From an uncultured Planctomycetia bacterium (lineage in GTDB: Bacteria > Omnitrophota > Gorgyraeia > 2-02-FULL-51-18), in contig CAZCVC010000001.1 of NCBI GenBank assembly GCA_964502045.1, positions 1-30,885 on the forward strand: DNA of 30,885 nt, read 5' to 3'. This document shows, one piece after another, positions 1 to 30,885 of the stretch (the stretch's first letter is position 1; each line of letters starts with the position of its first letter). Made by a program: the position numbers and the translations under genes. The notes beneath the pieces were generated by a model. That model had not been told where the DNA came from and did not search any database. It was given only the letters and a program-made list of their open reading frames with translations.

Positions 1-720
1 GGCGGCCAGTTGCTCGGCGATCTTGTCGGCTTTTTTGTTGTCGCCGAGATGGACGCGAAAAGGGCCGGCGAACTGCGTCGGATTGTCGTCGTAAGCTTGG
101 ATCAGCTGCGGAAACTCCATCGTCGTATAACCCTGCACGTCGAAATAGTCGATAGCGCGGGTGGCGTAAGCCGCGCGCGCTGGGCCATCCAGCTCGTCCC
201 ATTTTTTATGATCGGCGGCAGCGAAAGCTTTCGCGCGTCCGGTGATGAAGCCGCCGTGCTGGGACGGCAGGGCCGCCCAAAAACGGGAGAGTTCGTTGGA
301 TTTGAGTTCGAGCGCCTTGACTTCTTCGGGCGTCAGCACGAGCATGTACATCGTCGTCATCTGGTTTTCGATGACCGGCGCGGCTCCGTCGTTCGTCGTC
401 ACGTTGACGCGGAAACTGCCCTGCTTGTCGACGCGGATCAGGCGCTCGACGTCGACCGGCGTACCGAGGTTGTCGGAAAGGCGCGCAACGGCGGACTCTT
501 CAAAACTCGTGCCGGCCGCCACGTGGCCGCCGACGAAATCGAACGCACCAGGGTACGTCTTTTTTTTCGCCGATCTTTTCTGGATGATCACGTGCCCGGT
601 TTCGGGATGGACCAGGATGATGCTGACCCCTCGATGCAGCGCGCCGGTGATATGGGCCTGGTCGATGTCCATCTGTCCGATCTTGCTTTCTTTTTCGTCG
701 AAAATATCGATGAGCTTGAC
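1..720 (-). other. Nudix-fold domain copy 3 (IDI/YfcD-like), degenerate Nudix box
   Basis: LIDIFDEK..GALHRGVSIILVHPETGHVIIQKRSAKKKTYPGAFDFVGGHV. Box at 460-528 reads GHVAAGTSFEESAVARLSDNLGT and lacks the REUXEE glutamates. Confidence 0.8.
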
Positions 721-3700
721 AGCCAGGCGGCCGCCCTGCGTTTCGGCCAGCCGCGCGCCCACGCCGGGGCGCATCTTCACCGGCATCTGCTGCGCGCGGA
801 GCGTGTCCGGGAACTTGCGGATGTCAACTTTGTCGGGCGACAAGCTCTGCGACGCTTCCAGCAGACCCGCCGTCGCGAGATATTCGACCTTCGGTCCGAT
901 CTTGGCATAAAGAAGGCCCGGAAACTTTTCGGGCGCCACATTGGCCACTTTGGCTTCTTTTTCTACCATGCCTACGTAATCGTCCGTATGAATGCGGTTG
1001 GGGTCGAACGCACGCGCCAACAGGTACGCCCGCGTATCATCGTCGATATACGCGGCACTGAGAAACTTGCCCATTTCGGAGCGAGTTTCGGGGTTGTACT
1101 GGTATTGCTGAGCCGATTCATAGCTCAGCCGCCAGGCCAGCTCGGCGTTGATGGTTTGGTCCGGATTGCGGAAAAATACGCGCATGTTATTCAGCAGCGC
1201 ATAGTGAAGATAAGGATTGATCGGAATGTCGTTCGGCTCCCCGGGCTCACCTTCGATGTTCGCGTCGTAAGGCGCATCGGGAAAAGCCGGCCGGCGGCGC
1301 GTAACGCGGCGCTCTCTTCCCTCGCCCTCGACCCGCACGATGTAATAGTGAGGATCATCCGGATCGGCCGGGGAAGTGGAAACGTAGACGTCCTCAGGCG
1401 TGCCACCGACGCCGGTCGCGCGCGTACGCATCGGATTGGTCGAATTGTCGTAATACGGCGTCCCGACCGGCTCGCCGTAAGGGTCCGTGGGATGACGCTC
1501 GTCTTTCATGCCGGCCTTAAGCTTCCGGTCGATCCGCGTTACGAAATCTTCATTAGCAACGATGTCGTCGAAAATGTCACGGAAACGGATGAAATAGCGG
1601 CCGCTGTCGTTGTCTTCGAAATAGGTCTCCTCGCCGGACACCGGATCAACGGCTTTCTTGTAGGGCCTACCTTGCGCCGCCGAGATCTGCCGGACGAGAT
1701 CCTCAGAGATCATCAGCGCCTTCGAAAAATGACGCTCATAGGCCTGGATCGCGCCGACGTTGCGGTTCATAGAACCATCCGGCATGTCGGCGCCCGTCGA
1801 TTCAGTCATGTGCACATGGTTCATGATGAAGATGCCGGTCAACGGAAACTGGTAGGACTTATCTTCTTCGCGTTCGCCGATAGTCACGTTTTCGTCGGGG
1901 CGCATCCAGTCCCTGATCGGCATTTTCATGCGCCGCCGCAGGATGTGCTCGACGACTTCGGGATGGAACTGCGAAAGAATGCTCGCGGCCGTGCTTCCGG
2001 CGCCGCAGGTGAATACTTTTGCCTGCTGGAAATTGAGCATCGTCTGCCATGAGGCCGACGGCGTAGACGTGAAATCAGGCTTCCCGTCAGGACCGATCCG
2101 GTAGACGCCGAAGTCGACCATGTAATTATCGTCGAGATAAAGGTTGTCTATGACGCCCTGACTGACGGCCACGTTCGGTTGGCCCGCCAATTCGCCGGTG
2201 GCCCTGTATTTCACGTTCGCCGGATGCGCCCAGTCGATCGGATGTTTATAGCGCGCGACGAGGACGCTCGGCTGTATCGTGGAAACGGAAGTGCCGACGA
2301 CTTTGCGGCTTGTCGTTTCCAAGCCCAACATCGTGGGCAGCACGTAGGACAGCACCATAAACTGCTTTTCTTTGTAATCCCTTGTCGCCTGGTCCCAATT
2401 GAGCACGCGCGTTTTGAAGCCCATCGCCAGCTCGTAGAGGTTGCGCACACTGTTTTCTTCGATGACGGCCTTTCTGAAAAAGTCGGGCATTGCCGGACGA
2501 TTGCCGGCATCTTTTAGGTCGATGAAATCATTGTCGATGATGCGTGCCGTGTTAAGCAGGTTGGCGATGAACGATAACGGCAGGTGCTTGGCTTCGGCGC
2601 GCAGCAGGTTGACCGTGTTGTCGATACGGTCTTCGGGTTCGCGCAGCCTCCAGTCCGATGGAATGTCGCGCGCGGTCCTTTCAAGTTCGGCCTTGATCAC
2701 GTCGACATAATGCTTCTTGTCGCCGTGGTCCTTCGCGCTGAGGCGCAGCTCGAAAATCCTCGCGAACGCCGAGTGCTTCGACGCGAGCGCCTCGACAGTT
2801 GAAGGCCGCTTGTCTTCGAGCATCAGGTTCAACATCTGTTCGCGGTCGCCGACGCCATAGACGGGTCCAAACACCGGCCGCACGGCGGCGTTCTGCTTGC
2901 CCGATCCGCCGCCCGAATCAGTGCCGGGAGACGAAGTGCTTTTTTTTCCGAGCGACTTCACGTAATGGAACAGCGTGCCCTCGAACGTCTTCACGAGCCC
3001 GCCGCCTCCGCCGATCATGATGATGTCCGACGGCGGGGCACGGCCGCTGAGAATCAGCTGTTTGATCTGTTTGTAGGTCGGGAAAACTTGCGGCACCGGC
3101 AGCGAACGACCGGGGAAATACATGCCCTCGGCGTCGACCGGATAATCGCCCAGGATGACCTGCGCGACCGATTCGCGCTTGAAATCGGCCTCCTGGTGCA
3201 ACGCTTTCAGGAGCTCGTCGTCGGCATCACGGGCAAGCTTGAGTATTTCATTGCGTGAGGACGCCGCTAGGTCTTTGCGCTTGAGCGCAGCCTGCTTCAC
3301 CAGGTAGAGCCTCTGCATCGCTTTGAAGTTGTCGCTCATGAGCGCATGCACGTGCATCGCGATACGGTCGGCATTGTTGCGCCCTTTTTCGAAATATTGT
3401 CGCGCCGCATTTTTTAGACCGTCCCTCTGGCCATCTCCGAGCGTGTCGTAATCGATAACACCATTCCTCGCCGCGAACCAGCGGGCCCTGGCCTCGACTA
3501 GGCGTTCTTTTGCATCCGCATCGCCGATCTTTTGGTAATCATCAATTTCCTGGCCCTGAAAATAGGTGTTGAACACCGATGAAAACTGCCCCTGATTGTG
3601 GTCGAAACGGCTTACAGCCTCCGTGAGCTTCATAGCTTCATAGCCGCGGACGTCGAAATAGTCCCTCGCTCTTTCACGCAGCTCTGTTTTCTGGCTGTCG

Positions 3701-6700
3701 GGTAGCTGGTCGAAATGCTTGATCCTGTTTTCTTTTGCAGGCTTGAAAAACTGGCGCGCCTTTTGTTCGATCATCCCCGCCTTGTCGGTGGTGGCGGACC
3801 AGAAGCGGTTCAGCTCCTCGTTCTTGGAGTTGAGGAAACGCACTTCTTCGGCCGTCAGCATGACCATGTAGAGCGTGCCGATCTGGTTATCAATGAAATC
3901 GCCGTCGGCGCCGCTCAGGCGGATATACGTCGCGAACGACGACTCTGCCTCGACCTGCACGAGACGCTCTATCAAGATCGGATCCTCGAATGTCTCCAAT
4001 AAACGGTCGACAGCCGCCTGCCTGAAACTGCTTTTGGTACCTACGTGTCCCCCGACAAAATCGAGCCGGTTCGGATATGTTTTTTTGCCGGGCGCGCGTC
4101 GCTGCAGGATGATATTGCCGGTATCAGGATCCACGAGAATGATGTTCACGTTGCGATGCAGCGCGCCGGTGCGGTGCGCCTCTTCAAGGGAAACGGCTGT
4201 GCCCGTGAAAACACCGTCGGCGTCAAGCACATCGACGGTCGTGACGGCGAGGCGCGCGCCTTGCCTTTCCAACGAGGCGGCCGTGACGACTTTCAGGTTC
4301 ACGGTCCTCAGGAAGTCCGAATGTCCTGCCTGGCCGGGCAGTCCGTAGCTGGTGACGATGTTGAAATCCCGTTCCGCGCTGGCCGCGACTTCGGCGCGGA
4401 AAATTTCGATCTCGGTGTATTCGACGTAGCGGGTGAACCGCTCGAATTCTTTCGGCTCGTGGCTGATCAGGACGGGAGCGACGCCGGGCAGGATGTTCAT
4501 GCGGCGTGCGGTCACGGCACTCGGCGTGATCATGATGAGGCGGACGCCGAGCTCGAAAAGACGCTGGGCCGTGGCGCCGGTCTGGCTGAAAATGACGGTG
4601 CCTTTCGCGTTGGAGATCGCCGCACGGTGCGCGACCGAATAAGTGCCCTGCCACAAGAGTGAGGAAGCGATCATTTCCTGGTCCTTCTCGAACCTCTCGC
4701 GCACAAGTTTGTCCTGGCGTTCCTTGAAATTGACTTTTTTCTCGGCTTCGCCGATCGAGGCTTTCAGCGCGCGGATCACAAAACCGGTCTGAGTGAACCC
4801 TTCGTCTCCGTTCGCGTAGCTGACGAGGCCCGCGCCTTCGCTGATCGACGCTTCGAGGCTCTGCGGGTCAGCCGGGTCATGGTCGACGATGCTCAAAGCA
4901 CCCGCGGCCAGCGTTTTTTGAAGGAACGTGTTGCGTACCAGGGGATAATGCTGAGATCCGGCTTCCTTCGATATCGCCTTCTTGTCGAGCCAAACGCCGT
5001 CCAGCGAAGGCAGCACGCGCTCGAGGTTGTCGAACGCTTCCTGCGTGCCCACTTTCGCGAAAAGGAACGCTCCGTTCGTGATTTCCGCGCGGAACCGAGC
5101 GAGGTCGCGGCTCTTGCTGCCGAGAGGCACGACGACGCCGTCCACGTCGAGCTCTTTCATGCCGTAGGCGATGTCCGCCGTGTCTTTTTCGTCGGTCTTG
5201 CCGCCGAGTACCTGTACGACCGTGACGAGGCTGCGCGTTTCGGCCGCGATCTCGCGGAGGCGCTTGACCGTGTCCTTGACCCACTCGCGATGGTCTTCGG
5301 TAATATCGGTAAAATCGAAACTCGCGGACTTCATGCCGCTCTTCAGAAGTTCGCGCAGCGCCGTGTCGGAGCTGAGCGAGGGCGTGATCGCGACCATCAC
5401 GCCGGCGCGGTTCCCGCGATGCGGCGACGACGCCAGGATCAGCGGCTCTTCCTGCAGGATCTGCACGCCCGGATGCGGGATAACGGTGTCGAGTCCGGAT
5501 TCCAGCAAGAGTCGCGCTTCGCGCGAACCGAGATTTTTTTCTTTCAGCACGTCGAGCACGACAAGGCGGTCTTCGGGACGCACCGCGAGCCTGTCCATAA
5601 TCGAGGTGAATGCCGCCGTGTCCTTCAGCACCGTCGGTTTTTCTATCTTGTCGCTGTCTCGGCGGCCGATGTCGACGTTCACGATGTAGGCGACATTGCC
5701 GATCTTCACGCGGTAGGACTTGATGTCGGGGTTCGTGTTGTTGATCGGCATCGCATCGTCGGGACGATCGAGGAAATAGCGGTTCAAGCGCTTGCGGAAC
5801 CATTCTCCTGCGAGGAAATCGTTCGCGCGGCGGTCGCCCTTCATCGCCTTCTGCAGAACGGCCACCGGGTCCCGGTAAGCGGCCAGCGCGTCGCTGACCG
5901 TCGAAAGGTTCGCGGCAGCGGTCATCAAGTGTCCGAGCGGACGGCTCAGCTTCACCGAGGCTACCTGATAGGCCGCGAAATCGTCGGGACGCTCGTGGCG
6001 CAACTTTAAGCACCAGTTAAAAACGGCGCGGAAATCTTTTTCTTCGGGCCCGTTCGGGATCAGCACGTTGCCCGAGCCGGGTACCGTGCGGTCGAGCACG
6101 ACGCCGTTCAACTGCGTGATGCCTTCGATCCAGGGCGCGGCGATCATCAGGGCGCCGTTGACGGCGCTGTCGGACTCCGTGAATTCGGCGGCGCCGGTCG
6201 CGCGCCTTGAAACCATCACCTGCACGTCGAAGATTGAAAGCGCTTTCAGTTTTTCCCTCGGGCCCCAGCCGGTCACGACGATGAGGCCGCCAGGGACCTC
6301 CTCGTTGACTTCTTTTTCCAGGGCCTTCAGCCTGAGCAACATTTTGTGGCTGTCCTCGCTGGGCTGGACGTTCACCATCAGCACGACCTGGCCGCCCGCG
6401 CGTTCGTCGTTGCTGCGCACGATGTCGAGGATGTTGTCACGCGTCCATACGGTCTGCTCGTCGATCTTTTCGGGCACGAGGCGCGCGACGATGCCGAACG
6501 TGGTCTTGTTTGGATCGAGCTTGGAGAAAAGGGGATTATAATCGTTCAGCGTCTCGTCGTCGCGCGCGGCTTCCTTGGCCAGGACCTTGGCGCTCTTAAA
6601 CTGCGTGATGGTGGGACGCTCGAAATCGACGCCGGCGTCGGCCGCTGTCAGGTGCTTGCGGAATTCGGACTGAGATTCGGGCCGGTTGTCGCCGTTCGTG

Positions 6701-9700
6701 TTGGCCACGGCGGGCGTCGCCGTCGGATCCAGGTGCGCCAGATCGTCCATATGAGGGCCGCTGACTTTCGAATTGGCGTCGGCGGTGCGGATGGCGCCGC
6801 TGGTGTCGTCGGTGTCGGTGATGCGTTCAAAATAATGGTGCATGTGCTGTGGGATGCCGGCGCGGTTCAGCGCTTTGCGGCCGTCGTTCAACGGATACGT
6901 GCCGCGGTTCGGGTACGTATGGGAAACGTGCCAGAAAAACGCGTCTTTCAGGATGTGTTCTTCTTTACGCCTCTGCGAATTTTCTTCTTCGATGCGGCGG
7001 TAAACGAACAGTTTGCCGATCTGTCCGTCATTACCGACGACGACGGGCGCCTTATAAGCCGCTTTCTTCGCTTCTTTATCGCGTTTTTCGAGTTCTTCGA
7101 TGAGCTTCAGCGACGCGCGGCTGAAAAATTCCGAAAATTCCTGCCAGGAGCCGGTGCCGTATTTCTCGTACTGGTACATCAGTTTCGTGATGCGGCCGTC
7201 CTTGTCGCGGATGAGCCAGGCTTCCTTGCCTTCCCGGTTGGTCCCCCGGAAAGCCTCCGCCGTGACGTCTACGCCCCCGACCTTGACCTGGAACGTCAGC
7301 TGGGGTTCGGGCTGTAAGTCATTGGCAGGCCACGGAAGAGTGCTGTAATCGAACGGTTTGGGCTCGAAAACGTTCAGCTTTGTGTTGGGATCGACGACCG
7401 GGTGGCCGGCGGCGTCGCGGACGAGCTCGAGACGCAGGCGGTACATCGGCTCGATCGTCACGACCTGCGCCTTGCTCTGCATCAGTGTGGTTTCGCCGGA
7501 AGAAACGAACTGCAGCACGGGTCCCAGCCCGCCGCCCACGAGCGAAATTTCGGGCGAAATATTGTAGACGGTGCGCCCCTCGAGTTCGGGCGCGAACCTT
7601 TCGAGCCAGTTATCCCGGACGATGCCGAACATCATCAGGATGCGGTCGGCCAGCACGCTCTTGGCCAGCGCCGGGGACGCCGACTCCTGGATCAGCTTCA
7701 GCACGGTTTCCTGCTTCGCCTTGTCCATGATCGCGACGGCCCGCAGCACGGGCTGATAGCGCTCGACCGGGTATTGGTGAAGCAATTCGATGGTGTCGGA
7801 ATATTCGAGCAGTATTTCGGTCAGTTTTTGTTCGGGAGCGCCAGAGGCCAGCGCGTCATCCAGGACTTTTTTGATATATTCGACACTGTTGGTCTTCACG
7901 GCCAAAAGCGGCTTCGGCACGTTCAGCATCAGCCCTTTGCCGGCTTTTTTCAGGAGGCCGATGCGCTTCATGCGCTCGACGAGAAGTCCGATCTCGGTCT
8001 TGTCGGTCTGCAGGCCGAACGCTTTGAGCCGGTCCTCTATCAGCGCGACCAGCACGGTCCTATCCACCGGCGCTGATTCTTCCTGCGCCAGAAAGATGGA
8101 ACCGATGATGTTCATGCGCTGCCAATTAGGCCTCAAGTCCCAGCGGCCATCCGGCCATTTGTCGCCGACGCCTTCCCAAAGCCTTTCGAGATAAGTCGGT
8201 ACCGCGGCGACGAGGCGTGCGCCTTCCGCTTTCAAAGTTTCTGCGAAATCTCCGGCTTCCGTTTTTTTCCGCGGCGCAACGGCGGCCATGCGGGAAGCAG
8301 CCACGATTTGTTTGTCCAGCTCGAGACCCCGGCCGACTTTGTACTGCAGTATTTTCCAGACCAATCCGCGTTCCGTCATCAGCGCGCCGATCTCTCTCTC
8401 GGCCTGCTCCCGGTCGGTATTCTCTTTCAGGAACACGGCGCCGACGCCGCCTCCGAAAGAGCCTGCGCCCTTCTGTCCTTCCACGTAGGAGGGCATTGCC
8501 AGCACCAACGCGTTCCAGTCGGCGTTGACATACGTCGGCGAATTCACGGCGAACGCATTTCCTTCTTCGATAGTCAGTCGTATCACTTCGTTCAGATCTT
8601 GGCGGGCAAGCGCGGCGATAAGGGCAGCGGTGCGATCGGCGCCGGTATCACGCGTGCGCGGGAAGCTCTTGGAGCCGCGCAGACGCAGCTCGATCAACGG
8701 TTCGAGGATTTTTTGGGCGCTGGTACCGGCAACGCGTATGCCTGTATCGATGAGTATCATGCGGTCCGCGAGGCGGCGCGTGATCTGGTCTTTCAGGTCG
8801 GACGAAAGTCCCAGGCCGATCTCCTTCAGTGTGTCGATCGTGCCGGCCCCCTCAGTGCCGATCAGGTTCAGTCCGGCAAGGATCGTACCGTAAGGGTCCT
8901 GCCATCCGCCGGTGGAATTATCGGGGTTGCGGCTGCCGAGAAACGCTTCGACGGCGGCCGCGCGCAGCGCGATCTCGGCGTTGGTGCGCGGCTGGCCCGC
9001 CAACTCGAACAGTTCTTTCAAAAATTCTGCGGCCGCGCCGCCCGAGCCTCCAAGACCGTTCGGAAGCGGCTTCGCGCAGCGGATCTCGAGACCGTTCATC
9101 GGGGCCGTCTTTCCCGCCTCGGTGTTGTTGTAGGCCAGGAAGAAATCCCGAAGGCGGGCCGTAAAAGTTTCCTGTGTGTCCGTGAGTTCCCCGCTTTCGT
9201 TGCGCTGGATGTAGCCGGCCTCGGCCAGAGACGCGACAGCATAGGCGAATTTTGGATCGTCGAGCTTCGAGAAAAGCTGCTGCACGTCCGCGGTTTCGAG
9301 CACGGCGCCGTTGTCCGCGATGATGCGTATTTTTTTCTCGGTGATGGGCCGCATCGAGGCGCCCTCCTCGTAACCCTCGATCTCGATCGCCATGTTCACG
9401 ACTTTACCGGGCACGCCGGAAACCACATCGATGATGAGGTCGCATGCGAGCGCGCCGTGCGTCAGATCGAAGCGTCCGGAGCGGCGCGCTTTCAATGATT
9501 TTCCGTAAAGGTCAGGCGCCAGCGCGAACGGCCCTGCGTAAGGCTGAATGTAGCTGCGCAGCTGCGTCTCGAACGTGCGGTAGATGAGCTGGTTGCGCAT
9601 GCGGCGGTACCTCACCTGCTCGGTGGGGCCGTCGGGCGCGAGCAAATGCAGGTTGTCGCCTATCTTCGAGAACTCGCGAAAATAAGCGGAAGATGTACGG

Positions 9701-14013: not shown

Positions 14014-14019
14014 GCGTTT

Positions 14020-14026
14020 TTCCCCT
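14020..14026 (-). promoter_or_regulatory. Shine-Dalgarno site of gene B
   Basis: Minus strand reads ctaaAGGGGAaaaacgcTTG. Confidence 0.8.
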
Positions 14027-14153
14027 TTAGAACTTAGTCTAGTAGATAAGAAATATTTATATGAACCGCGAAAAAAATTTCTTTAGAAAAAGGGCAAAGC
14101 CATCGGATGCCGGGAATAAGAGAAACCGATCCCGCCGGTCGATTATTCAAAGA

Positions 14154-14182
14154 AGTATACAAGCCAGCCCTGTCGAATTCAA
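14154..14182 (-). promoter_or_regulatory. Sigma70-type promoter for gene B
   Basis: Minus strand TTGAAT (14182-14177), 17-nt spacer, TATACT (14159-14154). Implies a leader of about 135 nt. Confidence 0.6.
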
Positions 14183-14257
14183 GGCGAAATCAAGCGTTTG
14201 AGGCATTTTTATTCCCGTAATTTCAAGCATTTATGAGAAAACTGCGTTTCAAATAGA

Positions 14258-23300: not shown

Positions 23301-26300
23301 CGCGATCATCGCCAGGACCTGGCGGCGTTCGACGTCGTAGGCGTTTCCCGAATGGTATTTCGCGAGCATGAAGGCCAAGCCGTCACGGCAGAATCTTTCG
23401 AATTGGTCGCTCAGGAACTGGTCGCGGGCGACCTCGTCGTCGGGCATCGTCGGAAGCGCATCCATGTACCCGGGAGAAAAACGCGACGTCGTCAGCGCCG
23501 AATCGCGGCGGTAGGCCGCGAGGGCCATCACCTCGTCACCTGTCAGCGAGCCGAAAGTGACGACCGTTTCGCCGGTGAGCTGGACGAAATCGGACTTTCT
23601 TTCCTCGATCAGTTGACAGATATTCTCGAATGGCTTCTCGCTTGTCGTCTGGGAAGGCGCGAATGCCTTTTCGAACTTCGTGTGCAGCGCAGCCATCTCG
23701 GCAAAATCACGGGCGTTACCCGCATGACGGCCCTCGTCCGGCTCAGGCAGGCGGTCGAGGCGCCTCTCGATCGATTCGAGCTTGTTGCGGCCTTCGAGCA
23801 GGATCTCTTTTATCTTCGGGCTGGCGGTGATGTCGTTTTCACTGCCGATGAAGTCCTTGTACAGCTTTTGCGCGCGCGCGATCACGCCCTCGAAAACGAC
23901 CTGGGCGGTTTCAAGGCCGGTGCGGGCGCGGTTGGAGAGGTTGATATCTTCGGTGCTGCTCGTGTTGCCCTCTTTGACGAAAATTTCGTTGTTCATCCCT
24001 TCCAACTGCTTGATGAGGCTGGCGTTTCCAATGGGATCCTCTTCCCTCGCAGCGACGAGGGCGCGCACGACATACTGCGTCACGCCCGTGTACATGAGGC
24101 CGGCCGTCCAAAGCCGCATCATCGCCTGGTGTTTCTTCTGGATCAGGTTCCATTCCGACTGGAAGACTGTGCAATCGAGCTGGTTTTTCTCGTCCAGCAG
24201 AACCTTCAGGGCCGTCTCCTTGTCCATCCGCGCGAGCTTTTCGAACAAAGCGCGCGTCTCGAGGTTGAAATACGGGCCGGCCACGAACTTCAGCATCGCT
24301 TCCTTCATCTGGAAAAAATCGTTCAGCATCGCGCTGATCGTGCTGCCGTCGATGACGTTGGCCCAGGCGACGTTGTACGTGCCGCCCTTCGACATGTCAA
24401 AGCGGCCGCCGCGGCCGAACAGCTGCATCAGTTCGCCTCCGGTGAGGCGCTGGTTCACGTTCACGATCAGCAGATCGGACTGATAGTCGTTGCCGCGCGT
24501 ACCGACGAGATCGGTGAAAATGATGCGGCGGCCCTTCTTCACGTTTTTTACGGTATTGTCGGACTCGCGGGCGTCGCTGGTCTTTCTGCCGTCGATCATC
24601 TCGAGCATGTCCGAATATTTCCCTCCCTTCGAATGGATGTAATCGGCCAGTCCGGCCTTCAGCGCGTCGTCCATTTCGTTGAACGAGATCAGGATCGAGG
24701 AATCCGTGCGCAGATCCCCTTTCTTCCGCGCCACTCCGTTCAGGTCGACTTCATCCTTCTCGTGGCGGATCAAATCGCCTTTGAGGAAGCCTTCTCCGCG
24801 ACGGACGCCGTTCTCGTCTAACACGTCGTCGGCGTATCGGGGACCTTCCTGGGAGTTGAGGAAAAGATCGAGCTCGTTCTTCAAAAACTGCATTTTTTCG
24901 GCAAACGTCGAGCGCTCGAACGTGCGGAAACGCTTCGACGGCGTCTCGAGCGTCCGCCCCAAAGCGTCTTTGTCCATCATGCGGTCCCGGAAACCCTTCC
25001 AAAGGTCGAAGCCGACGCTTTGAGTTATGGTCTTGAAATTGTCGACGTCGAACACGCCCACGCCCTGCATCAGCAGACCGAACTCCACGACCTCTCCCTG
25101 CGTGGCGCTGGCCATGCGGATGAAGTTTTCGTTATCGCGCCGCCACGTCGTCCTGGTTTCCTTGATCCAGGCGGCATTTTTGGCCTCCCATTTTCTGGCC
25201 CACTCTTCTTTCGCGGCGGCGTCGTCCCCGAACTCTTTTTTCTCCATGTCTTCCTGCATCTTCTCTTCGATCTTCTCTTTACCGGCTTCTCCTAGCTCCC
25301 CTACCACCTGCTTCATGAATGCTTGATTTTTCTTCTCCCACTCCGCGACCCACGCCTTTTCCGCGGCCTCGGTACCGAACACCTCCTTCTTCAGGTCTTT
25401 GGCATATTGCCTGCCGATCCTCTCCTCGACGAGTTCCGAGATGCCTTGCTTGCGGAAAAGCTCGAAGCCCGAAACGCCGCCCGACGTATCCAGCACCTGC
25501 ACGCTGTTGAAATCTTCGGCAAAAGTGAGCTTGGATTTTTCGACCGCGTCGGTGGTCTCGAGGTTCAACTGCGTGCGGCGGTGGTTCAGCGCCTGGAGCA
25601 GCTGCAGGTCGCCGGGTATCTGGCTCGTCTTCAGCTGGCCGGACGCGACGTAGATGAAACGGTTCTTTTCCTTTTCGAACGTCACGTGGCGGAAGCCGTC
25701 CACTTCGCCGGCGCTCAGAAGGGACACCGCCACGACGGTCTGTAGATGTCCGCGGTCAAGGCCGTCCAGTCGGAAACCCCTGTAATCGTCGTCGGCGCCG
25801 ATCCTGAGCCGCTTGTCCTTCCTGAAATATTCGGTGACGCCCTCGTTGATGAGCGTCTCGCGGTCGCTCAGTTTGATATAAACGATCGGTTTGGCGGAGT
25901 TGTCGTAATTTTCCTTAAAATACTGCAGGTCGTCCGTGACTTCGACGTTCAAGTTGGCCCATATCCCGACCTTCGTGCCGTCGAGCCTTTCGACGGTCGC
26001 ATTGCGCTCGCCGCGCACGTCGATGCCCTTCATCATGAGACCGTTGACTTCAATGCGGATGTTGTTCTGGTCGATCGCTTCGCGGCGGCGGCGCTTCATG
26101 ATCGCGACCTTTTCTTTCTCTTCAACCGTCATGTCTTTCTCTTCCTTCTCGCCAATGGAACCGACGTAATCCGAAAGGTTGGTGTAGAGCGAGTCGCCCT
26201 CGTCGACGTATTCGATGATAGTCTCGAGCTCCTCGCATATCTCGTTGTTCAGCGTGCGGCTGTTCTGCCTCAGAAATCCCGCTGACTGCATGTCGATGAC

Positions 26301-29300
26301 GAAGATCTTGTACGGCGTGGCCTCCTTGAGCGTTCCGGTCTCACCGGTCTTGGCGGACAGATCCGTTCCCGCGCCGGCCATTTTCTCGGCGCCGTCCTCC
26401 GCCTTCGGGCCCCGGAGAAGCCTCAGCACGCCCTCCTCGTCATGATCTTTCTGCAGGCGGTCCAAAAGCTCGGTCTTGCCGTCGCCGAGGCGCGCTTGCC
26501 CGCCGGTCATCATGCGGATGAAGCGCTTGTGCTCGTCGCTCGAGAGGAACTGCTCGCCGATGGCGAGGTTCGGCACGTTGATGAACACGGCGCCCTGCTG
26601 CAGCGTACGGCGCCCGTTGATCATCCGCACTACCTGCTGCGCCGCCGCGGCCAACTCAACGAACGTTTTGCCGGTACCGGTGCCGGCTGCGAGATTGTAG
26701 TCGCGGATCTTCGCGATCGAGACCAGCTGCTTGTTCATGAAATATTTTCCGGTGGCACGCTTGAAGATGAACGCTGTCATGATCGTTTCTTCCTGTTCGG
26801 TCAGGTTGAAAAATGAGTTGGGGATCTCGGACTCGTTGCGGTTGGCCAGAGCCGCGGCCAGGTTCTTTCGCGTGCTGTTTTCATCCAGCTGGACGTCAAG
26901 CTGTATCATGCGTTCGAAGAGCGCATACGTCACGTCGTTGACCGGTACGGCGTCCTTGAATTTCAGCTTGCCATCGCGCAGCAGGTCGAATCTTTTGCCC
27001 ATCGACTCGGCCGCGAGCTTCTGCATCATTTCCAGCACGCCGTATTTCCCGTTTTCCTCAGTAGAGGATTCATCGCCGTACACGAGCCTTTCGACGTCGG
27101 GCGCGTCCTTTTCTTTCGAGGGCACTCTGGACCGGATCATTTTCTGAAGCTCTGCCAGCTGTTCGGCCGTGACGCGGCCCGACAGGAAGTGTTTCGTGTA
27201 AAAACCAAGATAGTCGGCGCCCGCATTCGCGGCAATGGCTCTTTTGAGGGCGCCTTCCGCCGTCGCGATCTCCGCGTCGGTCGCCAGATCGCGCGCTTTG
27301 CGGGCCTTCATGATGTCGCACTCGAGCCGCGCGATCTCGACCGCCATCGCTTTTTTCTCGTTAGGGTCGAGATCCTTCATCGCGATCTGGGTGTTGGCGG
27401 GCCCGTCCAGGAATTGCTTCGGACTGGCGGGGTCGAGCGTGAGCTTCCTGAGCCTTTTTTCGAGCAGTTCGAGCGAAGCGATGTCGGCAAAAAAGGAAGC
27501 AAGCGCGCTCCTGACCGCGTCAGGGTGCAGTTCTTTGTCGTTTGCCACGTCGCGATCCTTGTGATAGACGAAGGGCCCCGGGGTACGGTCCTCTCCGAAC
27601 TTCTGGAACTGGGCGGCAAACGCTTTCATCTCCGTTTCGTTTTTGGCGTTCTGGAAGCCTTCGATCAGGGCGTAGGCATCCTTTTCGTCCTCGCGGAGCA
27701 GCTGACGCTGGGCACCGAGACGGCTCAAGCGGTATGTCTTCGGCACGCCGTCGGTGTTGTTGAACGTCACCTCGAGCTGCAGGCGCTCGTTCTCGCCGGA
27801 AGCATCCATCACCGTTTTGCGGATCTGTTTCTTGTCGACCTGTTTGAACCACTCTTCCACGAGCAGACGCTGCGTGTCAGCCTGGTACTCTTCCAGACGC
27901 ATGCGCTCCGCCTCGAGCTTCTGCGTGAGGTCGAGGTTCGAGCTGCTGTGCAGCCAGCCCTGACGGTATTCCAGGCCCTCGAAAACACGCGTGCCGTCGG
28001 CCGCGACTCCGGTGAAAAGTTCCAACAGAAGGTTGTTATATACCTTCAGATTTTTATCGGCGATTGCCTGTTTCATGCGGCCGATCAGCGCTTTGACCGG
28101 CGCGCTTGAGAAAAACTTGTCAGTCTCTGTTTTCGGCGTCCCGTCGGCCACGGCCTGCATGGCGTCCAGCAGCACTATACAATCGTTGACGACGGCCTGG
28201 TTCTCGGTGTCCTTCTCGCCGAGACCCCGCACTTTCAGGAATAACTCGTAGCGGGCCTTCTGGTTGACCGCGTCGTCGGGCAGAGAATCGGCGCGGCCTT
28301 TTCCCCATTTGATCAGCTTGGCCCGGAAAACCCCGACCGCCTGGCGCAGGTGCTTGAGCAGCGCCTGTATCTGTTCTTCAGGGAGCCCGGTACCCTTCAG
28401 CTGGTCGCGGAAATTGATCTCGCTGATTTGGCCGTGTTCGTTGATGAGATCGAAGATGATCTCGAAAAGGAGGGCCGCCGCTTTTTCCCTGTCGGTCGCG
28501 AGCAGCCTTTGAAAATCGAGCAGACGGTCGTAAAGGGCGGACGCCGGGGGGGCCGGGGTGACGTCCTGGGCGGTTTCGTCCAGTTTTTCATTTTCTTCGG
28601 CGGTATCGAGCTTGACCGGAGGCGAACGCGGTAAAGACGGGACCGGCACGCCGTCATCGGCATCCGCCCGGTCTTCGACAACGGGCCCCGGCACGGGAGG
28701 GCCTGAGTCCGCGTCCGCGGGCGCGGTATCAGCAACATCCGCGTCGGCGCTCGCGGAAGGGATCAAGCGAAGTCTCGACAGTTCGGCGAATGCCGCACGC
28801 GGTGTGAACATGGTGTCGGCTCCGTCCGCGTCGTCGAGGTTGATCCGAAAATCGTCAGAAAAAATCGTGAGCCATACTGTCCAGGTCTTTTCGTCCGCGC
28901 CGTGCTTCAGTTCGAGCGCGACGGCGACGGCGCCGGACGCTTCTTTCTGCAACGTCGCAAACTCGGCCAACCCTATCAAATTCACCGCCAGCGCGCCTTC
29001 AAGGTCGAGAATCACATCGTAAAGTTCAAGCAGTGTCGTGGCGGCGGCGATGCGGGCGCGGATGAACTCGGGCGTCACCGCGGACTTGGCGCTGAGATCA
29101 CCTGACGGCCGGCGGTCTTGGACTACAGGCGCTGGGGCGGTCTGCTGCATTTCCTGTCCGGCCTGCTGCTGATCGGCGGCCGTCCACGTGCCGTCGAGGA
29201 TGCGGCCGGCGATATTCTGCATGAGGCGGGCGCGGGCCTGGATCTTTTCCGCATTTTGCCGGATACCGGCGGCATCCAGTTTTTTTGAAAGATTGTAATA

Positions 29301-30884
29301 TTTGACGGCGTTGCCGGCATAGGCGACCGCCAGAAAATGGCGCGCGTCCCCGCGCTCGCGTCCGATCTGGGTGATGATGCCGACGATATCCTCCGCCGTG
29401 AAGCCGGCCTCCGTCAGCTCGCGCAAGACCTGAACCATCGGCGCGATCGCGCCCTGCATTTCGGCCATGTCGGCGTCGTTCACGTCGCTGCGCGTCTCAC
29501 GGTAGGCTTTGGGATAGCCGGCAAGCCGGTTCCGAAAAGATGCCCAGGTCTCCTGCGTCATGGCGCCTTCGGATATCATCGCCTGCAGTTCGTCCAAAAG
29601 GCTGTTCCAAGAGGAGCTGGTGCGTGCACCGTTCCGGTTCAGGTCCGCGTGGGCCCTTTCATGGCGCCGCGTACGCGCCGAGGCGTCATCCGAGACCGAT
29701 TCGCTTCCGTATTCGAAAGCGATGCTCAGACCCAATTCCATCGCGATGACCGTCGAGGCGCCGAACGCTTCCCGGGTTTCGCCGAGTTCCTGCATGTGCG
29801 CTTTCATGACGACGTCTCCGGACGCGTAGTCGGCGGTTTCCCAGTAAACCGTGCCCGTGGCCAGGTCAAACTTGGAGTTTTTCAACGCGTCAGTCATCAT
29901 CGCCTCGGTGACAAGGAAAGTACCCGAACCGTCCAGCGCGTCGACTTGCACGCCGGACCCGCAGATCTTTTGCAGGATCCCGCGATAGACCGTTATTTTA
30001 AGAAATTCGACGGCGCGCGCTTTCACGGCGTCGTCGCCGCTGTTCAGGCCGTTCAGGATGCGCCGGATACGCGCGTCGAATGCGTCGCGCAGGATCTGCA
30101 GTACGCGCCGCGAGGCGACGTCGGCGTCGGACTCGCTCATTCCGTAGCCGCCGGCCGTGCCCGCGGCTTCGAAGCGGGTACGCATTTCCGGAAGGATGCG
30201 GTTGTGAAGCGACCTCAGGATGTCCGTCAGGTATTTTTCGGTCGCAGCGCTGGAAAAGGATTCAAGGCCGTCGATGATCGCGGCGATAAGCTTGATGGCC
30301 GAGACGATGTCTGCGGAAGTCCAGCCGTTGAGCGCGCCGTGACGTCCGATCTTTTCTTTGAAAAAACTCAGAAGTTCCTGTTCTTCGGTCAGGGTCAGGG
30401 CCGTGCCGGTTGCCTTTTTATCGCCGATCAAACGCAGGAACCCGCCCAGCTTGGCCAAGCGTGCGGCCGCGTCGTCCGGCGCCTCGCCGGAGGCATCCGC
30501 ATCCAAAATCGCGTCAGTGCTTACGGTCAGTCCTTTGACGCGCGCCAGTCGCCGGACTTCTTCGACCGCCGCGGACGTCAGCGTGTTGTTGACGCGCAGC
30601 TTTCCGGCGGCGTCATTGCTCAGCACATTGCCGATGATCTCGCGCAACGCGCGTGCCGAATCTGTTTCGCCGGCCTTGAGCGGCTTAAGCTCTCCGGTTT
30701 TGAATATCTCCGAGGCCTCCGCGAGCGCGGATGTGGCGGCGTCGCCTTTCAGCGCTTCCCCTTCGAACACGACCTGCCCCTCCTTCAGCACGGTCCTGAA
30801 AAGACGCGGACCCTTGTCCGTGTCGAAATAAAGCAGCACTTTGCCTTTCGAGTAAAGGACCCGCTTTCCTGCAGCGACGGCCTC
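14358..30884 (-). CDS. Giant multidomain protein (gene A), at least 5,509 aa, 5'-truncated; three HExxH motifs, SecA-like ATPase, ~110-aa tandem repeats
   Basis: ORF track 14358..30839 (5493 aa). The frame stays open for 15 more codons upstream of the GTG to the window edge (EAVAAGKRVLYSKGK), so the true start is outside. Stop TAA at 14358-14360. Confidence 0.96.
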   Translation of the reverse strand, partial: EAVAAGKRVLYSKGKVLLYFDTDKGPRLFRTVLKEGQVVFEGEALKGDAATSALAEASEIFKTGELKPLKAGETDSARALREIIGNVLSNDAAGKLRVNNTLTSAAVEEVRRLARVKGLTVSTDAILDADASGEAPDDAAARLAKLGGFLRLIGDKKATGTALTLTEEQELLSFFKEKIGRHGALNGWTSADIVSAIKLIAAIIDGLESFSSAATEKYLTDILRSLHNRILPEMRTRFEAAGTAGGYGMSESDADVASRRVLQILRDAFDARIRRILNGLNSGDDAVKARAVEFLKITVYRGILQKICGSGVQVDALDGSGTFLVTEAMMTDALKNSKFDLATGTVYWETADYASGDVVMKAHMQELGETREAFGASTVIAMELGLSIAFEYGSESVSDDASARTRRHERAHADLNRNGARTSSSWNSLLDELQAMISEGAMTQETWASFRNRLAGYPKAYRETRSDVNDADMAEMQGAIAPMVQVLRELTEAGFTAEDIVGIITQIGRERGDARHFLAVAYAGNAVKYYNLSKKLDAAGIRQNAEKIQARARLMQNIAGRILDGTWTAADQQQAGQEMQQTAPAPVVQDRRPSGDLSAKSAVTPEFIRARIAAATTLLELYDVILDLEGALAVNLIGLAEFATLQKEASGAVAVALELKHGADEKTWTVWLTIFSDDFRINLDDADGADTMFTPRAAFAELSRLRLIPSASADADVADTAPADADSGPPVPGPVVEDRADADDGVPVPSLPRSPPVKLDTAEENEKLDETAQDVTPAPPASALYDRLLDFQRLLATDREKAAALLFEIIFDLINEHGQISEINFRDQLKGTGLPEEQIQALLKHLRQAVGVFRAKLIKWGKGRADSLPDDAVNQKARYELFLKVRGLGEKDTENQAVVNDCIVLLDAMQAVADGTPKTETDKFFSSAPVKALIGRMKQAIADKNLKVYNNLLLELFTGVAADGTRVFEGLEYRQGWLHSSSNLDLTQKLEAERMRLEEYQADTQRLLVEEWFKQVDKKQIRKTVMDASGENERLQLEVTFNNTDGVPKTYRLSRLGAQRQLLREDEKDAYALIEGFQNAKNETEMKAFAAQFQKFGEDRTPGPFVYHKDRDVANDKELHPDAVRSALASFFADIASLELLEKRLRKLTLDPASPKQFLDGPANTQIAMKDLDPNEKKAMAVEIARLECDIMKARKARDLATDAEIATAEGALKRAIAANAGADYLGFYTKHFLSGRVTAEQLAELQKMIRSRVPSKEKDAPDVERLVYGDESSTEENGKYGVLEMMQKLAAESMGKRFDLLRDGKLKFKDAVPVNDVTYALFERMIQLDVQLDENSTRKNLAAALANRNESEIPNSFFNLTEQEETIMTAFIFKRATGKYFMNKQLVSIAKIRDYNLAAGTGTGKTFVELAAAAQQVVRMINGRRTLQQGAVFINVPNLAIGEQFLSSDEHKRFIRMMTGGQARLGDGKTELLDRLQKDHDEEGVLRLLRGPKAEDGAEKMAGAGTDLSAKTGETGTLKEATPYKIFVIDMQSAGFLRQNSRTLNNEICEELETIIEYVDEGDSLYTNLSDYVGSIGEKEEKDMTVEEKEKVAIMKRRRREAIDQNNIRIEVNGLMMKGIDVRGERNATVERLDGTKVGIWANLNVEVTDDLQYFKENYDNSAKPIVYIKLSDRETLINEGVTEYFRKDKRLRIGADDDYRGFRLDGLDRGHLQTVVAVSLLSAGEVDGFRHVTFEKEKNRFIYVASGQLKTSQIPGDLQLLQALNHRRTQLNLETTDAVEKSKLTFAEDFNSVQVLDTSGGVSGFELFRKQGISELVEERIGRQYAKDLKKEVFGTEAAEKAWVAEWEKKNQAFMKQVVGELGEAGKEKIEEKMQEDMEKKEFGDDAAAKEEWARKWEAKNAAWIKETRTTWRRDNENFIRMASATQGEVVEFGLLMQGVGVFDVDNFKTITQSVGFDLWKGFRDRMMDKDALGRTLETPSKRFRTFERSTFAEKMQFLKNELDLFLNSQEGPRYADDVLDENGVRRGEGFLKGDLIRHEKDEVDLNGVARKKGDLRTDSSILISFNEMDDALKAGLADYIHSKGGKYSDMLEMIDGRKTSDARESDNTVKNVKKGRRIIFTDLVGTRGNDYQSDLLIVNVNQRLTGGELMQLFGRGGRFDMSKGGTYNVAWANVIDGSTISAMLNDFFQMKEAMLKFVAGPYFNLETRALFEKLARMDKETALKVLLDEKNQLDCTVFQSEWNLIQKKHQAMMRLWTAGLMYTGVTQYVVRALVAAREEDPIGNASLIKQLEGMNNEIFVKEGNTSSTEDINLSNRARTGLETAQVVFEGVIARAQKLYKDFIGSENDITASPKIKEILLEGRNKLESIERRLDRLPEPDEGRHAGNARDFAEMAALHTKFEKAFAPSQTTSEKPFENICQLIEERKSDFVQLTGETVVTFGSLTGDEVMALAAYRRDSALTTSRFSPGYMDALPTMPDDEVARDQFLSDQFERFCRDGLAFMLAKYHSGNAYDVERRQVLAMIARLEDRYVRDAMRRILNYMESNSIDVEDKVEHEVNQLNDYFEKVGQPFYLYVRVTGKGTTLLSVKQVDARQKRDLVCGPEKNVRSVEAVFWENLDGLPDELDASINVAESKGNGKFVPIYVDKIRDNVRDQMLDKANGTITALLEQIWQDYEELVGKVQAAPKTPAAPGAPPAVREKGANGLIRLTTENNLGYNWKEFEDDFKRDIRAEYTVGGVLQIPVYMINVFARKRGEQIEGLVTQINQALIGARSKRKIAEKDLAAEAKEIREKINSLQQDAEFRTKLFRRIIKDAAGRDFESLKNDKKALLDAILKAEMNMLTTHEFGHELHQLNIGSRAYRGTSSGDKEFIAHLVSMLGRDGLMALEQIYGYHSMAPDTDGWKESYKIPTLDIMQKLKGRFKDRLEAWAKHPDTPKINGKPPVLDFTDSVDRFSLSDKEKEINLEGMRNVMMGLVSIFESDGGTEFRTTVQAILNDKADEKGEPRLDFATLSLDTKDAPMRKVPTLKAALPLDNQIEDVQKMADSHILPALRAVLDRELLNPPGDDDALPWDPEFFPKTPLDTAAGGAPGKKPDDARIRKVLYAMMGMAVPAVDEDDKEFWKRLNAALGRQALALAEEVSTENLQRDDIVNFYANAIKKLAAIVDDIDWAKTTDAGFLAVVDKADLKVETVYKRAAGAAGISAARLGFGHSGNKDAYLSMKGSVVPLKAGADTERLKDTIDLARRAFGIVIVSGDDAEKAEEDLIEAGLLLNAPSQSRDGLLPLVYLEAAGSKTAYRRFARDKARTRGSSGILDKIPGIETKALDKNLTETDVLVSFFAGDPAVMTDVVAGGDLPGKLARKLVHASLISKFEKLLDDLSTENPGLSGLYSQAKSILAGYPDDPAGALAKAAAYLDKEHDKLDKKIDDQITRDDERQLKAAGRFKRWRTQARTADSRAEIKKRQNKVPKPSELKVAAKDSEGPTKDSKGPEYGLSEWATKLADILKTGTGAEQLAAVMNLFGNEKKQTVMVNGVRVKVAEWFKQFEKITDKGKVKFSMDLDGSLLSLSVTSGHSLYAATLPNASEDPLLIFKDGSPVNYVPVNVTLDDVEQRVVRIVSKTLAGVANDVYEEENAEKLAKLPDDAAREAAKDRDVTSDYITNVLKTRFNYDIDRRIEIATRLIRDQGIQPARVFQEIKADCITLRQYYALQDDEFKKTSAYMNAVAAAKKKLKEIHEGARDRAAALGRKEDAAFLGEFPDFDKQLVPISAKAWDELQIAVPDEKGRIKYQSVKKGIKEIALWGAGVVLLPADPTVTENQLLGLLLHEGGHLSVDFQNKELSEGLTEWRAREMLREIKGDSAVREYMALAGKGSDYGLYGDEVETVRGQLETKFTLTTTVGTTVVKTVDWAALDMARFTGNPALLVPGAGVEPAGTKPRFEPTHRKESDAARQLLRDAGLLVPRPDDASSIRIRDGATMTDFLAALGGDQIKMAAFFNGWSATFRGSGKALAQAALLLPKPLVDLISPIHFMSVALQAKKMGKDAAGIAKYVDDTTRQEETVEMLKDAGIIVKHPTEKDQLVLADDATLAKTAAALDDEALRMAAFFEWWNDANKGLGAFMDEAARKLSSAVRGTLHPGRFMYFAREFHKAGKDAAGAAAEIELALRQQEIFELLKAAAVCVESPDKSGGISLAPDATMTKLTEALGGDPTKIADFFETWNPANTGLGVLMARIAGLLPKNSADICPPGYFMTTVAKAHADGKDDAGIVQEVEKEVLPVLALNALKDAGVFVTDADDNAAPAADADMLKVKNALASDPRLLPAYFENYKVNKGLGPLMANVTRGLPDDIAAAFKPFEFMVLVTEANKKGKNEAAIVEIAKRSVPQRALMEELKTANIYVPHPTEKGEWVLADDVTITKLTDQFAPEPGKLAVFFELFNEANDGFGPLLMQVAGLLTKADRDTAHPLDFTGTVQTSKAEGKNADATAKDVEAKMRQRLARAELAKAGLMANPVPGVYLMNSNTNMLAVRASLAPDVRLLPAFCESYQPNKGLGPVMAEVAAALPDGVLQDMTPFEFMLLVRTAHAGGKEAPAIAAQLLGDGAIGPAIQAALLLAGVIERGPGGPDDSLDFADKIEKANVAALRTALGSDPLKLALLFESEDDNVGLGNFMAELALALPEAAAATQHPMEFMLMARDGHTAGKTIPVLVAEIVEHRRLQDLFGLVRPTLIAKNLMVEDEDGVKFTEDATLEKLAAAFSDKPGDLNIFFQAFGHSDPLSAALAGFVFTTVQNKTSIAALHPIELFEVVRMAKTADAAFPDAKVIEIVQAVLPDDATIVGVEKVFASDRKKIADFFEALKANKGAGALISEVMAAILTDIPDSKVSPDLLQRVVRDVIEKTGPDQRDAQKIKGLVLQRHRFETERRQAAEAIRAKLEAAGGVIAAGSKVPAAPLPDAKISDLIAAAGADPSQLIDAFGVFGFAVEEGAYLVKVVLKAPPTTKLSSLLTKANLFRQSGTPLQTHPLDMIIKAMDPSAQGDADDEPDDALPANPKLAEILTLTAGDLAQLEAYYQLHFPKPDDAAAPDPGLVQVTTDLTLALATAAAADAASPEAQLIAKLDFEGLVHYSIVFYRADAPFDIPAVIAAMKKDFLEPDTQAARLAAPAFAEPIAVGVIGASPDDLKALESSNFGAGVSFYAIRRAPEDRGGDTARVYLSELRSKASGQPHAAESILDPQASGLTLKAAAGLALADARDLLFLNKIRSLIGALDAVDLEETRRIWNETSLLIKKEALEPAEILKQLDALFGVEGAGMPEGGAMRAFRGLSATEAAIVPAKSAMVIEETMIAKINSGPQKELFWKIAAKTQEQGMRLRVIGQSGAGIDSRVRYDISPDRKAAITALTKAGVPPENIAFAFSAGSGDTAEAVSGRISAEKPPLSRFMVVAEDGYRDPVLFFAGYFVGENVGIGFKDETFLKKVGGRLGTVIRWLRSLDIDRALRAATRLARALAQSA
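15795..19035 (-). repeat. About ten tandem ~105-115-aa protein repeats in gene A (eight full, two degenerate)
   Basis: Units begin LLRDAG, MLKDAG, LLKAAA, ALKDAG, ELKTAN, ELAKAG, LLLAG, LIAKNL at about 330-nt spacing. They share DAT...AL..D...FFE...N.GLG.LMA...LP...HP.EFM...GK...I. Confidence 0.9.
19340..19440 (-). other. Zincin (gluzincin-like) motif 3 in gene A
   Basis: LLLHEGGH (19389-19403) followed by SEGLTEW (E at 19353-19355). Confidence 0.7.
22255..22360 (-). other. Zincin-like motif 2 in gene A
   Basis: LTTHEFGHELHQ (HEFGH 22329-22343) with downstream DKEFIAH (E at 22266-22268). Confidence 0.65.
24330..26760 (-). other. SecA-like SF2 ATPase module in gene A
   Basis: Walker A AAGTGTGKT (26664-26690), YVDEGDSL (DEGD 26193-26204), SAT (25101-25109), TDLVGTRGND (24486-24515, cf. 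SecA TNMAGRGTD), QLFGRGGR (24402-24425, cf. QLRGRAGR). Confidence 0.75.
29480..29700 (-). other. Zincin-like motif 1 in gene A
   Basis: TRRHERAHADL (HERAH 29649-29663); candidate distal Glu in DMAEMQG. Confidence 0.5.
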
Positions 30885-30885
30885 C

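Follow-up and report, generated by a model that had tools for sequence, protein, structure and literature searches.

Do the very large multi-enzyme proteins of Omnitrophota act whole, or are they cut into their parts? This question, which is explicitly open in the literature, is raised by a 30,885-nucleotide (nt) stretch of DNA (assembly GCA_964502045.1, contig CAZCVC010000001.1), referred to here as the window. The window is contig C1 in full, the longest contig of the metagenome-assembled genome (MAG) G000 (1.54 Mb, 298 contigs, about 81% complete); genomes are labelled G, contigs C and orthologous proteins P. As the original prediction had stated, two co-oriented giant open reading frames (ORFs) fill it, both on the minus strand, as are all window features described below unless noted otherwise. 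According to the ORF list, gene A (14358-30884) has 5,508 codons plus a stop and is 5'-open, and gene B (1-14013) has 4,671 codons and a TTG start and is 3'-open, the contig ending inside the gene. Both carry the same kind of N-terminal domain of about 490 amino acids (aa), the head, and for this reason belong to one family. Both also carry a short junction peptide, the mark, at module borders. With a probability of about one half, A and B are independent, adjacent members of a phylum-wide 'head-cargo' family whose proteins would be exported through Sec and cut at the marks. The mark would then provide concrete candidate sites for cutting and the head a candidate enzyme.

The junction mark

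The junction peptide is a genuine feature of the module borders. Its in-window form, [GA]ARL[AVG], occurs five times in gene B (0.13 expected) and three times in gene A (0.20 expected). Because the mark had been defined on the window, it was tested on independent sequence, and the earlier claim of a peptide shared by the two genes held there as well. In the ORFs of G000 outside C1, GARLA is found 16 times in 39,937 aa of ORFs of at least 1,000 aa and not once in 408,266 aa of ORFs below 700 aa, while the broader G[ASG]RLA is found 34 times in large ORFs outside the window versus eight times in small ORFs. Additionally, an unbiased scan of every 5-mer across the cargo regions of 112 publicly available head-led proteins put GARLA first (36 occurrences in 19 proteins, 1.35 expected), followed by GARMA and GARLS, and GARLA also led the 5-mer ranking in 27 named Omnitrophota loci. 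In this clade the border pentapeptide takes the form G/A-A/S/G-R-L/M-A/S. GARLA is its commonest version overall; in the window, AARLA is no less frequent.

The mark also has a preferred place in the protein. Ten of the 12 head-led ORFs of G000 carry it in their cargo, mostly with the first copy within a few hundred residues of the end of the head. Among 80 related loci 24 carry the mark, and in 20 of these the first copy lies 87-401 aa from the GGFH anchor. Synonymous codons vary freely at the mark, and selection therefore acts on the peptide and not on the DNA. The same variation excludes a DNA-level signal such as a recombination site or RNA element, and scans of the window for Rfam families, tRNAs and DNA-level tandem repeats returned no matches. 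The flanks of the mark are unconserved; compared with the average, the upstream side is about twofold richer in proline and less hydrophobic (0.24 versus 0.32). A bias in codon choice was observed at one position: the arginine codon is CGT in 19 of 46 marks in large ORFs of G000, compared with 14% of the Arg codons there, and the other positions match genome usage.

Across genomes, the DNA pattern coding for GARLA is much more frequent than a scrambled control in most members of the window's family. No excess is seen in genomes without the head, nor in some head-rich genomes of a sister family, which carries an AARLA variant that this pattern misses. A mark of the RSExR type was essentially absent from the 100 representatives examined (two matches, at chance level), and no single alternative mark was found in the sample of distant head clades examined, which yielded only Pro/Ala-rich strings.

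At four borders of gene B, local alignments to other giants, from other genera, begin at the mark. The first, AARLA at residue 665 (12007-12021), separates the head from a Nudix module, and two homologous Nudix blocks in G026:C5 start at GARLA. At the AARLA of residue 902 (11296-11310), the homologous block of G016:C22 likewise starts at GARLA. At the GARLV of residue 1931 (8209-8223), blocks from G005:C32, G024:C112 and G018:C5 start at GARL, and the G030 copy reads AARLA. Further downstream, GARLA at residue 3252 (4246-4260) stands ahead of a second Nudix/IDI-like module, and GARLA at 4419 together with GGRLA at 4427 forms a double mark (721-759) at which the alignment of a duplicated module starts. 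This duplication relates residues 4424-4656 to 3249-3485 (window 307-759 and 3559-4269) at 40% identity; the unit consists of the mark, a Nudix module and about 100 aa, and is also the last visible module of the gene. In gene A, AARLA at residues 140-144 (30453-30467) is the first mark after the head, and AARLG at residue 3207 (21252-21266) is matched by GARLG at the homologous site of the orthologue P0164. The third, AARLA at residue 5155 (15408-15422), precedes a C-terminal module of 349 aa (14361-15407), and the orthologue P0131 has a mark at residue 5490, just before the homologous tail.

Pairs of marks 2-14 residues apart, of the form GARLA ... G[SG]RLA, are common; besides the pair at 721-759, they are present in other large ORFs of G000, for example on C23, C25, C175 and C181. 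Such a pair might release a very short spacer peptide if both members were cut, or each module might bring its own flanking mark.

The head domain and the proposed processing

The head is widespread. A search with gene B residues of about 10-545 gave 14 matches in G000 and up to about 30 in relatives, at the start of ORFs of 0.5-14 thousand aa. Among 1.84 billion cluster representatives, 7,913 matched at E <= 1e-3 and 6,526 at E <= 1e-10, and in all of the best 150 of the 7,913 matches the domain is N-terminal. When 201 genomes from across the phylum were sampled with a profile of the head, 151 had it, at the start of ORFs of up to 23,964 aa. The named homologues and related loci come nearly all from Candidatus Omnitrophota/Omnitrophica MAGs, which supports the Omnitrophota origin read from the sequence. 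Some head-bearing MAGs, including those of loci L061 and L078 and many third-party annotation (TPA) records, were deposited as 'Candidatus Eisenbacteria' or 'uncultured Planctomycetia'. Judging from where the head family occurs, these names were probably given by submitters or pipelines to what are Omnitrophota bins.

No relative of the head was found with Pfam or with PDB sequence profiles; PF01963 (TraB_PrgY_gumN) has no match in G000, and PF04187 recognises head members weakly (E = 0.018, two of 39). The fold assignment comes from an AlphaFold2 (AF2) model of good quality (predicted local distance difference test, pLDDT, 84.6) for the domain in gene B (residues 60-545; 12379-13836). Compared with 48,161 PDB chains, its top five matches were HopBA1, ChaN, EreC and two Bcr135-type proteins, with Z scores of 8.3-9.2, and RRSP scored 5.9. 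All of these are placed in the TIKI superfamily (PMC6254334). As modelled, the head thus has the fold of the TIKI/erythromycin-esterase/ChaN superfamily. A helical insert of about 300 residues splits its core, and for this reason Foldseek alone does not reach significance. The columns that are invariant in 39 diverse members include D92, H94, E122 and H489, with H94 and E122 28 residues apart and the GG-x-His near the C-terminal end. Catalytic His-Glu pairs at the same distance are described in Bcr135 (His-85/Glu-113) and RRSP (His-3902/Glu-3930), within a superfamily described as having a 2His/2Glu centre (PMC6254334). Judged by these residues, the head likely has an intact catalytic centre.

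Both genes appear to begin with an export signal, in keeping with the predicted export; that of gene A lies outside the window. The N-terminus of gene B (13885-14013) reads as a Sec-type signal peptide, in which a basic n-region leads into a hydrophobic core of 12 residues and, near residue 41, a V-Q-A↓Q-G site, and the same pattern recurs at the start of 17 paralogues and orthologues. Beyond the signal, no transmembrane-grade hydrophobic segment was found inside gene A or gene B. For gene A, positions 1-87 of contig C76 overlap 30799-30885 of C1 (84 of 87 identical), and the reading frames are continuous across the join. The first 634 residues of the orthologue P0131, which opens with the same head domain as gene B, match C76 with 60% identity, compared with about 36% for other head paralogues. 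From the overlap and this match it follows that gene A is about 6,120 aa long, with its signal peptide and head on C76. A contig from metagenome run X3 extends 669 nt beyond the window end and has the C76 variant at 30853. The extension of both genes called for in the original prediction therefore succeeded for gene A, whereas for gene B no contig continuing its 3' end was found. A third co-oriented large ORF lies on C76 (locus L017; 2150-6421, minus strand; at least 1,424 aa, 5'-open). It has neither a Pfam match nor a junction mark and ends about 200 nt upstream of the gene A start, beyond an AT-rich spacer. With A and B it places the giants in an array of at least three genes.

The course of events that we infer would begin with export of the whole protein through Sec. 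The protein would then be cut at the marks, either by the His/Glu hydrolase centre of the head or by another dedicated or partner protease, and protein-sized enzymes would be released. These would go to work away from the producing cell, and a host or prey cell, at its surface or inside, is a plausible target because nucleotides are required by the kinase, Nudix and ATPase modules. The idea that the marks are candidate cut sites is strengthened by the homology blocks that start at the mark, by the position of the first mark after the head and by the TIKI fold of the head with its invariant acid-x-His, Glu and His residues. A more specific version, which can be offered tentatively and at somewhat less than even odds, is that these are true bacterial polyproteins in which the head or a partner protease cuts G/A-A-R-L↓A and the released enzymes rewire how a host or prey cell handles nucleotides and sugars. 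In a co-fold, the head (residues 46-545) and a 31-residue junction peptide (residues 3238-3268) scored 0.00, which is evidence neither way.

Several observations weigh against export and cutting at the marks. The mark is present in only about one fifth to one quarter of head-led proteins, mainly in the clade closest to G000, and distant head clades are without it. Since most head-led proteins lack the mark, head and mark are not strictly coupled. Gene A is sparsely marked for its size, with three marks in 5,508 aa. Three marks of gene B directly precede paralogous Nudix modules, so that part of the in-window count reflects module duplication. Proteins with the TIKI fold include esterases and a haem binder besides proteases, and none of the RNA sequencing runs contained the locus.

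The unmarked head-led giants and the thin marking of gene A would also be expected if the proteins acted intact as tethered multi-enzyme scaffolds, in which the pentapeptide would be a structural cap or hinge at module starts, or a docking element, and would never be cut. In keeping with this, proline content and hydrophobicity give the flanks of the mark only a mild linker character, and the published catalogues treat such proteins as single polypeptides. However, a strict five-residue string with unconserved flanks, found at the borders of unrelated folds across genera, would be an unusual passive linker, and doublets a few residues apart are structurally hard to explain. The modular, polyprotein-like build with a junction peptide at its borders, which had been proposed from the window, is itself supported; that it serves an uncut scaffold is possible but less likely.

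Alternatively, the reader of the mark may not be the head but some other factor, for instance a distinct protease, a chaperone or a system for targeting, leaving the head free for other work such as esterase or amidase activity against the envelope or prey. The head paralogues of a single genome are 24-54% identical, yet their cargo shares the same mark, which fits one common reader. A C39 peptidase domain within another giant ORF of G000 also speaks for a separate enzyme. On the other hand, the catalytic set of the head is invariant in all paralogues, so that a common specificity is equally possible, and no dedicated protease gene was identified next to genes A and B. Overall, an outside reader of the mark seems unlikely. 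The Peptidase_C39 match (E = 7.5e-7; C13, 939-1112, minus strand) lies deep in an open-ended ORF of 3,614 aa and is a second candidate processing enzyme in G000, as far as the domain match can indicate. The reading of A and B as head-cargo proteins that are exported and cut at the marks remains preferred here.

Composition of the two genes

The cargo of gene B is an enzyme string behind a signal-like N-terminus, as the original prediction had held. After the head, the first Nudix/IDI-like module (residues 689-843; 11485-11949) matches Pfam NUDIX at 6.5e-11 as well as an NCBIfam model and has a near-intact Nudix box. It is followed by a guanylate-kinase-like module (residues 997-1154; 10552-11025), with a Pfam match at 1.1e-13 and TIGR03263 at 4.4e-21, below the equivalog cut-off, and by a fucokinase-like GHMP-kinase module (residues 1536-1859; 8437-9408), with NF009948 at 2.4e-10 and a weak match to GHMP_kinases_N at 3e-4. 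The next region, at residues of about 2060-2860 (5434-7836), resembles starch/glycogen synthases (GT5); this is a lead from language-model neighbours only (0.90), with no Pfam match. Residues 2941-3237 (4303-5193) contain part of a pyruvate-kinase-like barrel and its C domain (Pfam PK 5e-8, PK_C 7e-10, and NCBIfam). The second Nudix/IDI-like module begins at residue 3260 (3754-4236) and is recognised by Pfam, and the third covers residues 4434-4569 (307-714), with NF002995 at 1e-26, below its cut-off, and Pfam at 3.8e-7. A region of about 780 aa (residues 3640-4418; 760-3096) belongs to no recognisable family and has neither a Pfam nor an Atlas match.

Five Pfam/NCBIfam families are thus tiled on one polypeptide, in addition to the GT5-like lead. 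The NCBIfam matches all fall under the curated equivalog or subfamily cut-offs, and the Nudix boxes of two of the three Nudix modules are degenerate. By these sequence comparisons, the modules are divergent relatives of housekeeping enzymes and not their orthologues. A search for whole-length homologues of gene B gave one distant match only, and the gene is conserved module by module and not as a whole.

Gene A is of a different composition, and no Pfam family reaches threshold on it. Full-length orthologues are present in independent assemblies (P0131, 5,840 aa; P0164, 4,738 aa), with a complete copy at G002:C24. Gene A contains an SF2/DEAD-like ATPase motor (residues 1340-2200; 24285-26867), which has in order the Walker A motif AAGTGTGKT (residue 1399; 26664-26690), DEGD (residue 1561; 26190-26207), SAT (residue 1926; 25095-25109) and GRGGR (residue 2157; 24402-24419), corresponding to motifs I, II, III and VI. 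These motifs are fully or largely invariant in six orthologue rows, and the motor keeps 43-80% identity in orthologues. Motifs II and III are set apart by an insertion of about 360 aa. The Pfam matches to DEAD (0.048) and Helicase_C (0.19) remain sub-threshold. The best PDB matches of the motor profile are DEAD-box helicases (E = 0.005), with no SecA chain at E up to 10, and the structure model is poor (pLDDT 57.5). Its sequence therefore indicates a generic DEAD-like SF2 ATPase only.

The original prediction had called this motor SecA-like. A probable SF2 ATPase motor is present, but every SecA sequence test was negative. In a six-frame search of G000, PF07517 found a true SecA on C114 and a weak match on C170, not gene A; in relatives, it found canonical SecA and several other giants (for example, ORFs of 9,719 and 13,654 aa), not the orthologues of gene A. 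Comparison by hhalign with seven canonical SecA proteins gave a probability of 0.9% over 18 columns at motif VI only, and a hidden Markov model (HMM) of the motor did not recognise the SecA_DEAD-bearing giants of relatives beyond the Walker A region. Giant ORFs of relatives (G025:C16, G015:C95, G027:C50 and G027:C55) do carry a Pfam-recognisable SecA_DEAD domain, in line with the literature, and belong to a family that differs from the gene A motor.

Three HExxH motifs had been reported in gene A, and all are present (0.05 expected), although conservation supports only two of them. The second, HEFGH (residue 2848; 22329-22343), is a zincin-like motif retained in P0131, P0164 and the G021 orthologue; the G015 orthologue also has an HExxH at a similar position, and weak language-model leads point to metallopeptidase families. 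The third, HEGGH (residue 3828; 19389-19403), is kept in P0131, P0164 and the G015 orthologue. Both are retained although the orthologues are only 38-60% identical around them. In contrast, the first, HERAH (residue 408; 29649-29663), lies where no orthologue alignment covers the site, has no conserved counterpart and is possibly due to chance. The repeat stalk was also recovered, as nine diverged tandem repeats of about 110 aa each (residues 3956-4894; 16203-19019), with domain E-values of 1e-21 to 1e-41 in an iterated HMM self-search. These repeats show no DNA-level tandem repetition and match neither Pfam nor a known family.

These parts had suggested that gene A is export and processing machinery, with a SecA-like motor, three peptidases and a stalk, serving the enzyme string of gene B. 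The two genes are indeed adjacent and co-oriented, and gene A contains an ATPase as well as two HExxH motifs that are conserved. However, gene A is itself a member of the signal-plus-head family with junction marks, its motor shows no sequence affinity to SecA in the tests above, and gene B is conserved only at the module level. Moreover, the adjacency is not kept in G002, the sole relative with a complete gene A orthologue and downstream sequence, where a spermidine-synthase-like gene comes next. A tandem system in which A serves B is therefore highly improbable.

Neither ORF contains an internal stop (0 in 5,508 and 0 in 4,671 codons). The AT-rich spacer of 344 nt between them (14014-14357) has promoter-like sites and a ribosome-binding site, AAGGGGA (14021-14027), 8 nt ahead of the TTG start of gene B, which argues for two genes and not one split by a frameshift. 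Compared with its congeneric orthologue, gene A has a dN of 0.15 and a dS of 1.24 (dN/dS 0.12) and is under purifying selection. The locus from 11000 to 30885 is tiled by contigs from three metagenome runs of two studies, and an independent contig from run X1 (13860-14636) crosses the spacer. An assembly or frameshift artefact, or a pair of decaying pseudogenes, is scarcely credible, since the fragmented state of the MAG, the low metagenome depth at the locus (2-8x) and a deletion variant in gene A stand against stop-free ORFs, the low dN/dS, full-length orthologues in independent assemblies and the three-run tiling across the spacer.

The variant, a single base missing at position 21711 in a contig from run X3, has about half the depth seen locally; it would reflect either an error of assembly or a strain in which gene A is frameshifted. 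The plus strand opposite the giants also has long ORFs, of up to 537 codons, for example at 23208-24821 and 16743-18305. They look like shadow frames at about 60% G+C, and nothing supports them as genes.

Relation to known systems

The closest parallels are published giant proteins of the same phylum. West-Roberts et al. (2023; bioRxiv 10.1101/2023.11.21.568195) described 'Archaeovorin-type' Omnitrophota giants, centred on genes above 90 kb, and Nielsen and Lui (2026; bioRxiv 10.64898/2026.06.07.730766) defined a 'multi-enzyme metabolic cluster' class in a catalogue that starts at 10,000 aa. In these studies the authors ask whether giants are cut, and one states that missing cleavage points blocked analysis. 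The shared features are the N-terminal signal peptide, unrelated enzyme Pfams (NUDIX, starch synthase, kinases), peptidase motifs, helicase-like ATPases and repeats that are old at the DNA level. In contrast, gene A (about 6,120 aa) and gene B (at least 4,671 aa, truncated) fall below the thresholds of 10,000 aa and about 30,000 aa, have no internal transmembrane-grade segment and, in gene A, have a motor that is not Pfam SecA_DEAD. In enzyme content, the window is a smaller member of this group. When both papers were searched for the terms TIKI, erythromycin esterase, polyprotein and linker, none appeared, and literature searches gave no paper tying Omnitrophota to the junction motif or to a TIKI-fold head. 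With a head in three quarters of the sampled genomes, the head and mark together make the question of cutting directly testable. The mark also gives a rule for splitting giants into units for structure prediction and annotation.

The original prediction drew an analogy with MARTX toxins, which are very large exported proteins whose unrelated effector modules are freed by processing of the inter-module regions (PMC6315884). The analogy stands in function only. Like MARTX, A and B are very large proteins with several unrelated modules, and the MARTX effector RRSP shares the TIKI fold of the head, at the Z score of 5.9 given above. Cleavage by the MARTX protease takes place after Leu, which a cut at ...R-L↓A would match. 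However, the MARTX cysteine protease domain C80 (PF11713) had no match in G000, which is 81% complete, at E up to 0.1, nor in genes A and B, and neither gene has an RTX-type Pfam match. A and B also differ in having an N-terminal Sec-type signal and not type I secretion, in the N-terminal position and other fold of the protease-like domain, and in coming from an environmental, ultra-small bacterium.

The head itself can be compared with the TIKI/Ere/ChaN/TraB superfamily. The likeness lies in the fold and in the acid-x-His, the Glu 28 residues on and the C-terminal GG-x-His, which mirror the 2His/2Glu centre. In contrast to these proteins, the head lacks a Pfam or PDB sequence-profile match, contains the insert of about 300 residues, has Asp and not Glu as its first acid and is fused ahead of a giant cargo. 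A further comparison is with polyvalent proteins, which Iyer et al. are said to have described in phages and conjugative elements in 2017. Gene A resembles them in joining an SF2 ATPase and zincin-like HExxH modules in one very long protein, and its weak language-model neighbours include LPD1/LPD23, all with scores of at most 0.85 and therefore leads only. Unlike them, it has no mobile-element context and is led by an export signal.

Viral polyproteins provide the remaining comparison. Here too, one ORF encodes many units of the size of mature proteins, with a short conserved peptide at each border. A and B differ in belonging to a cellular family that can number dozens of paralogues in one genome, in the shuffling of modules between paralogues and in that cleavage is predicted from the borders. 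If cleavage does occur, these proteins would be the cellular equivalent of viral polyproteins and would add a new format of effector delivery, and module shuffling at the marks would give each Omnitrophota genome, with a dozen or more such genes, a combinatorial effector repertoire.

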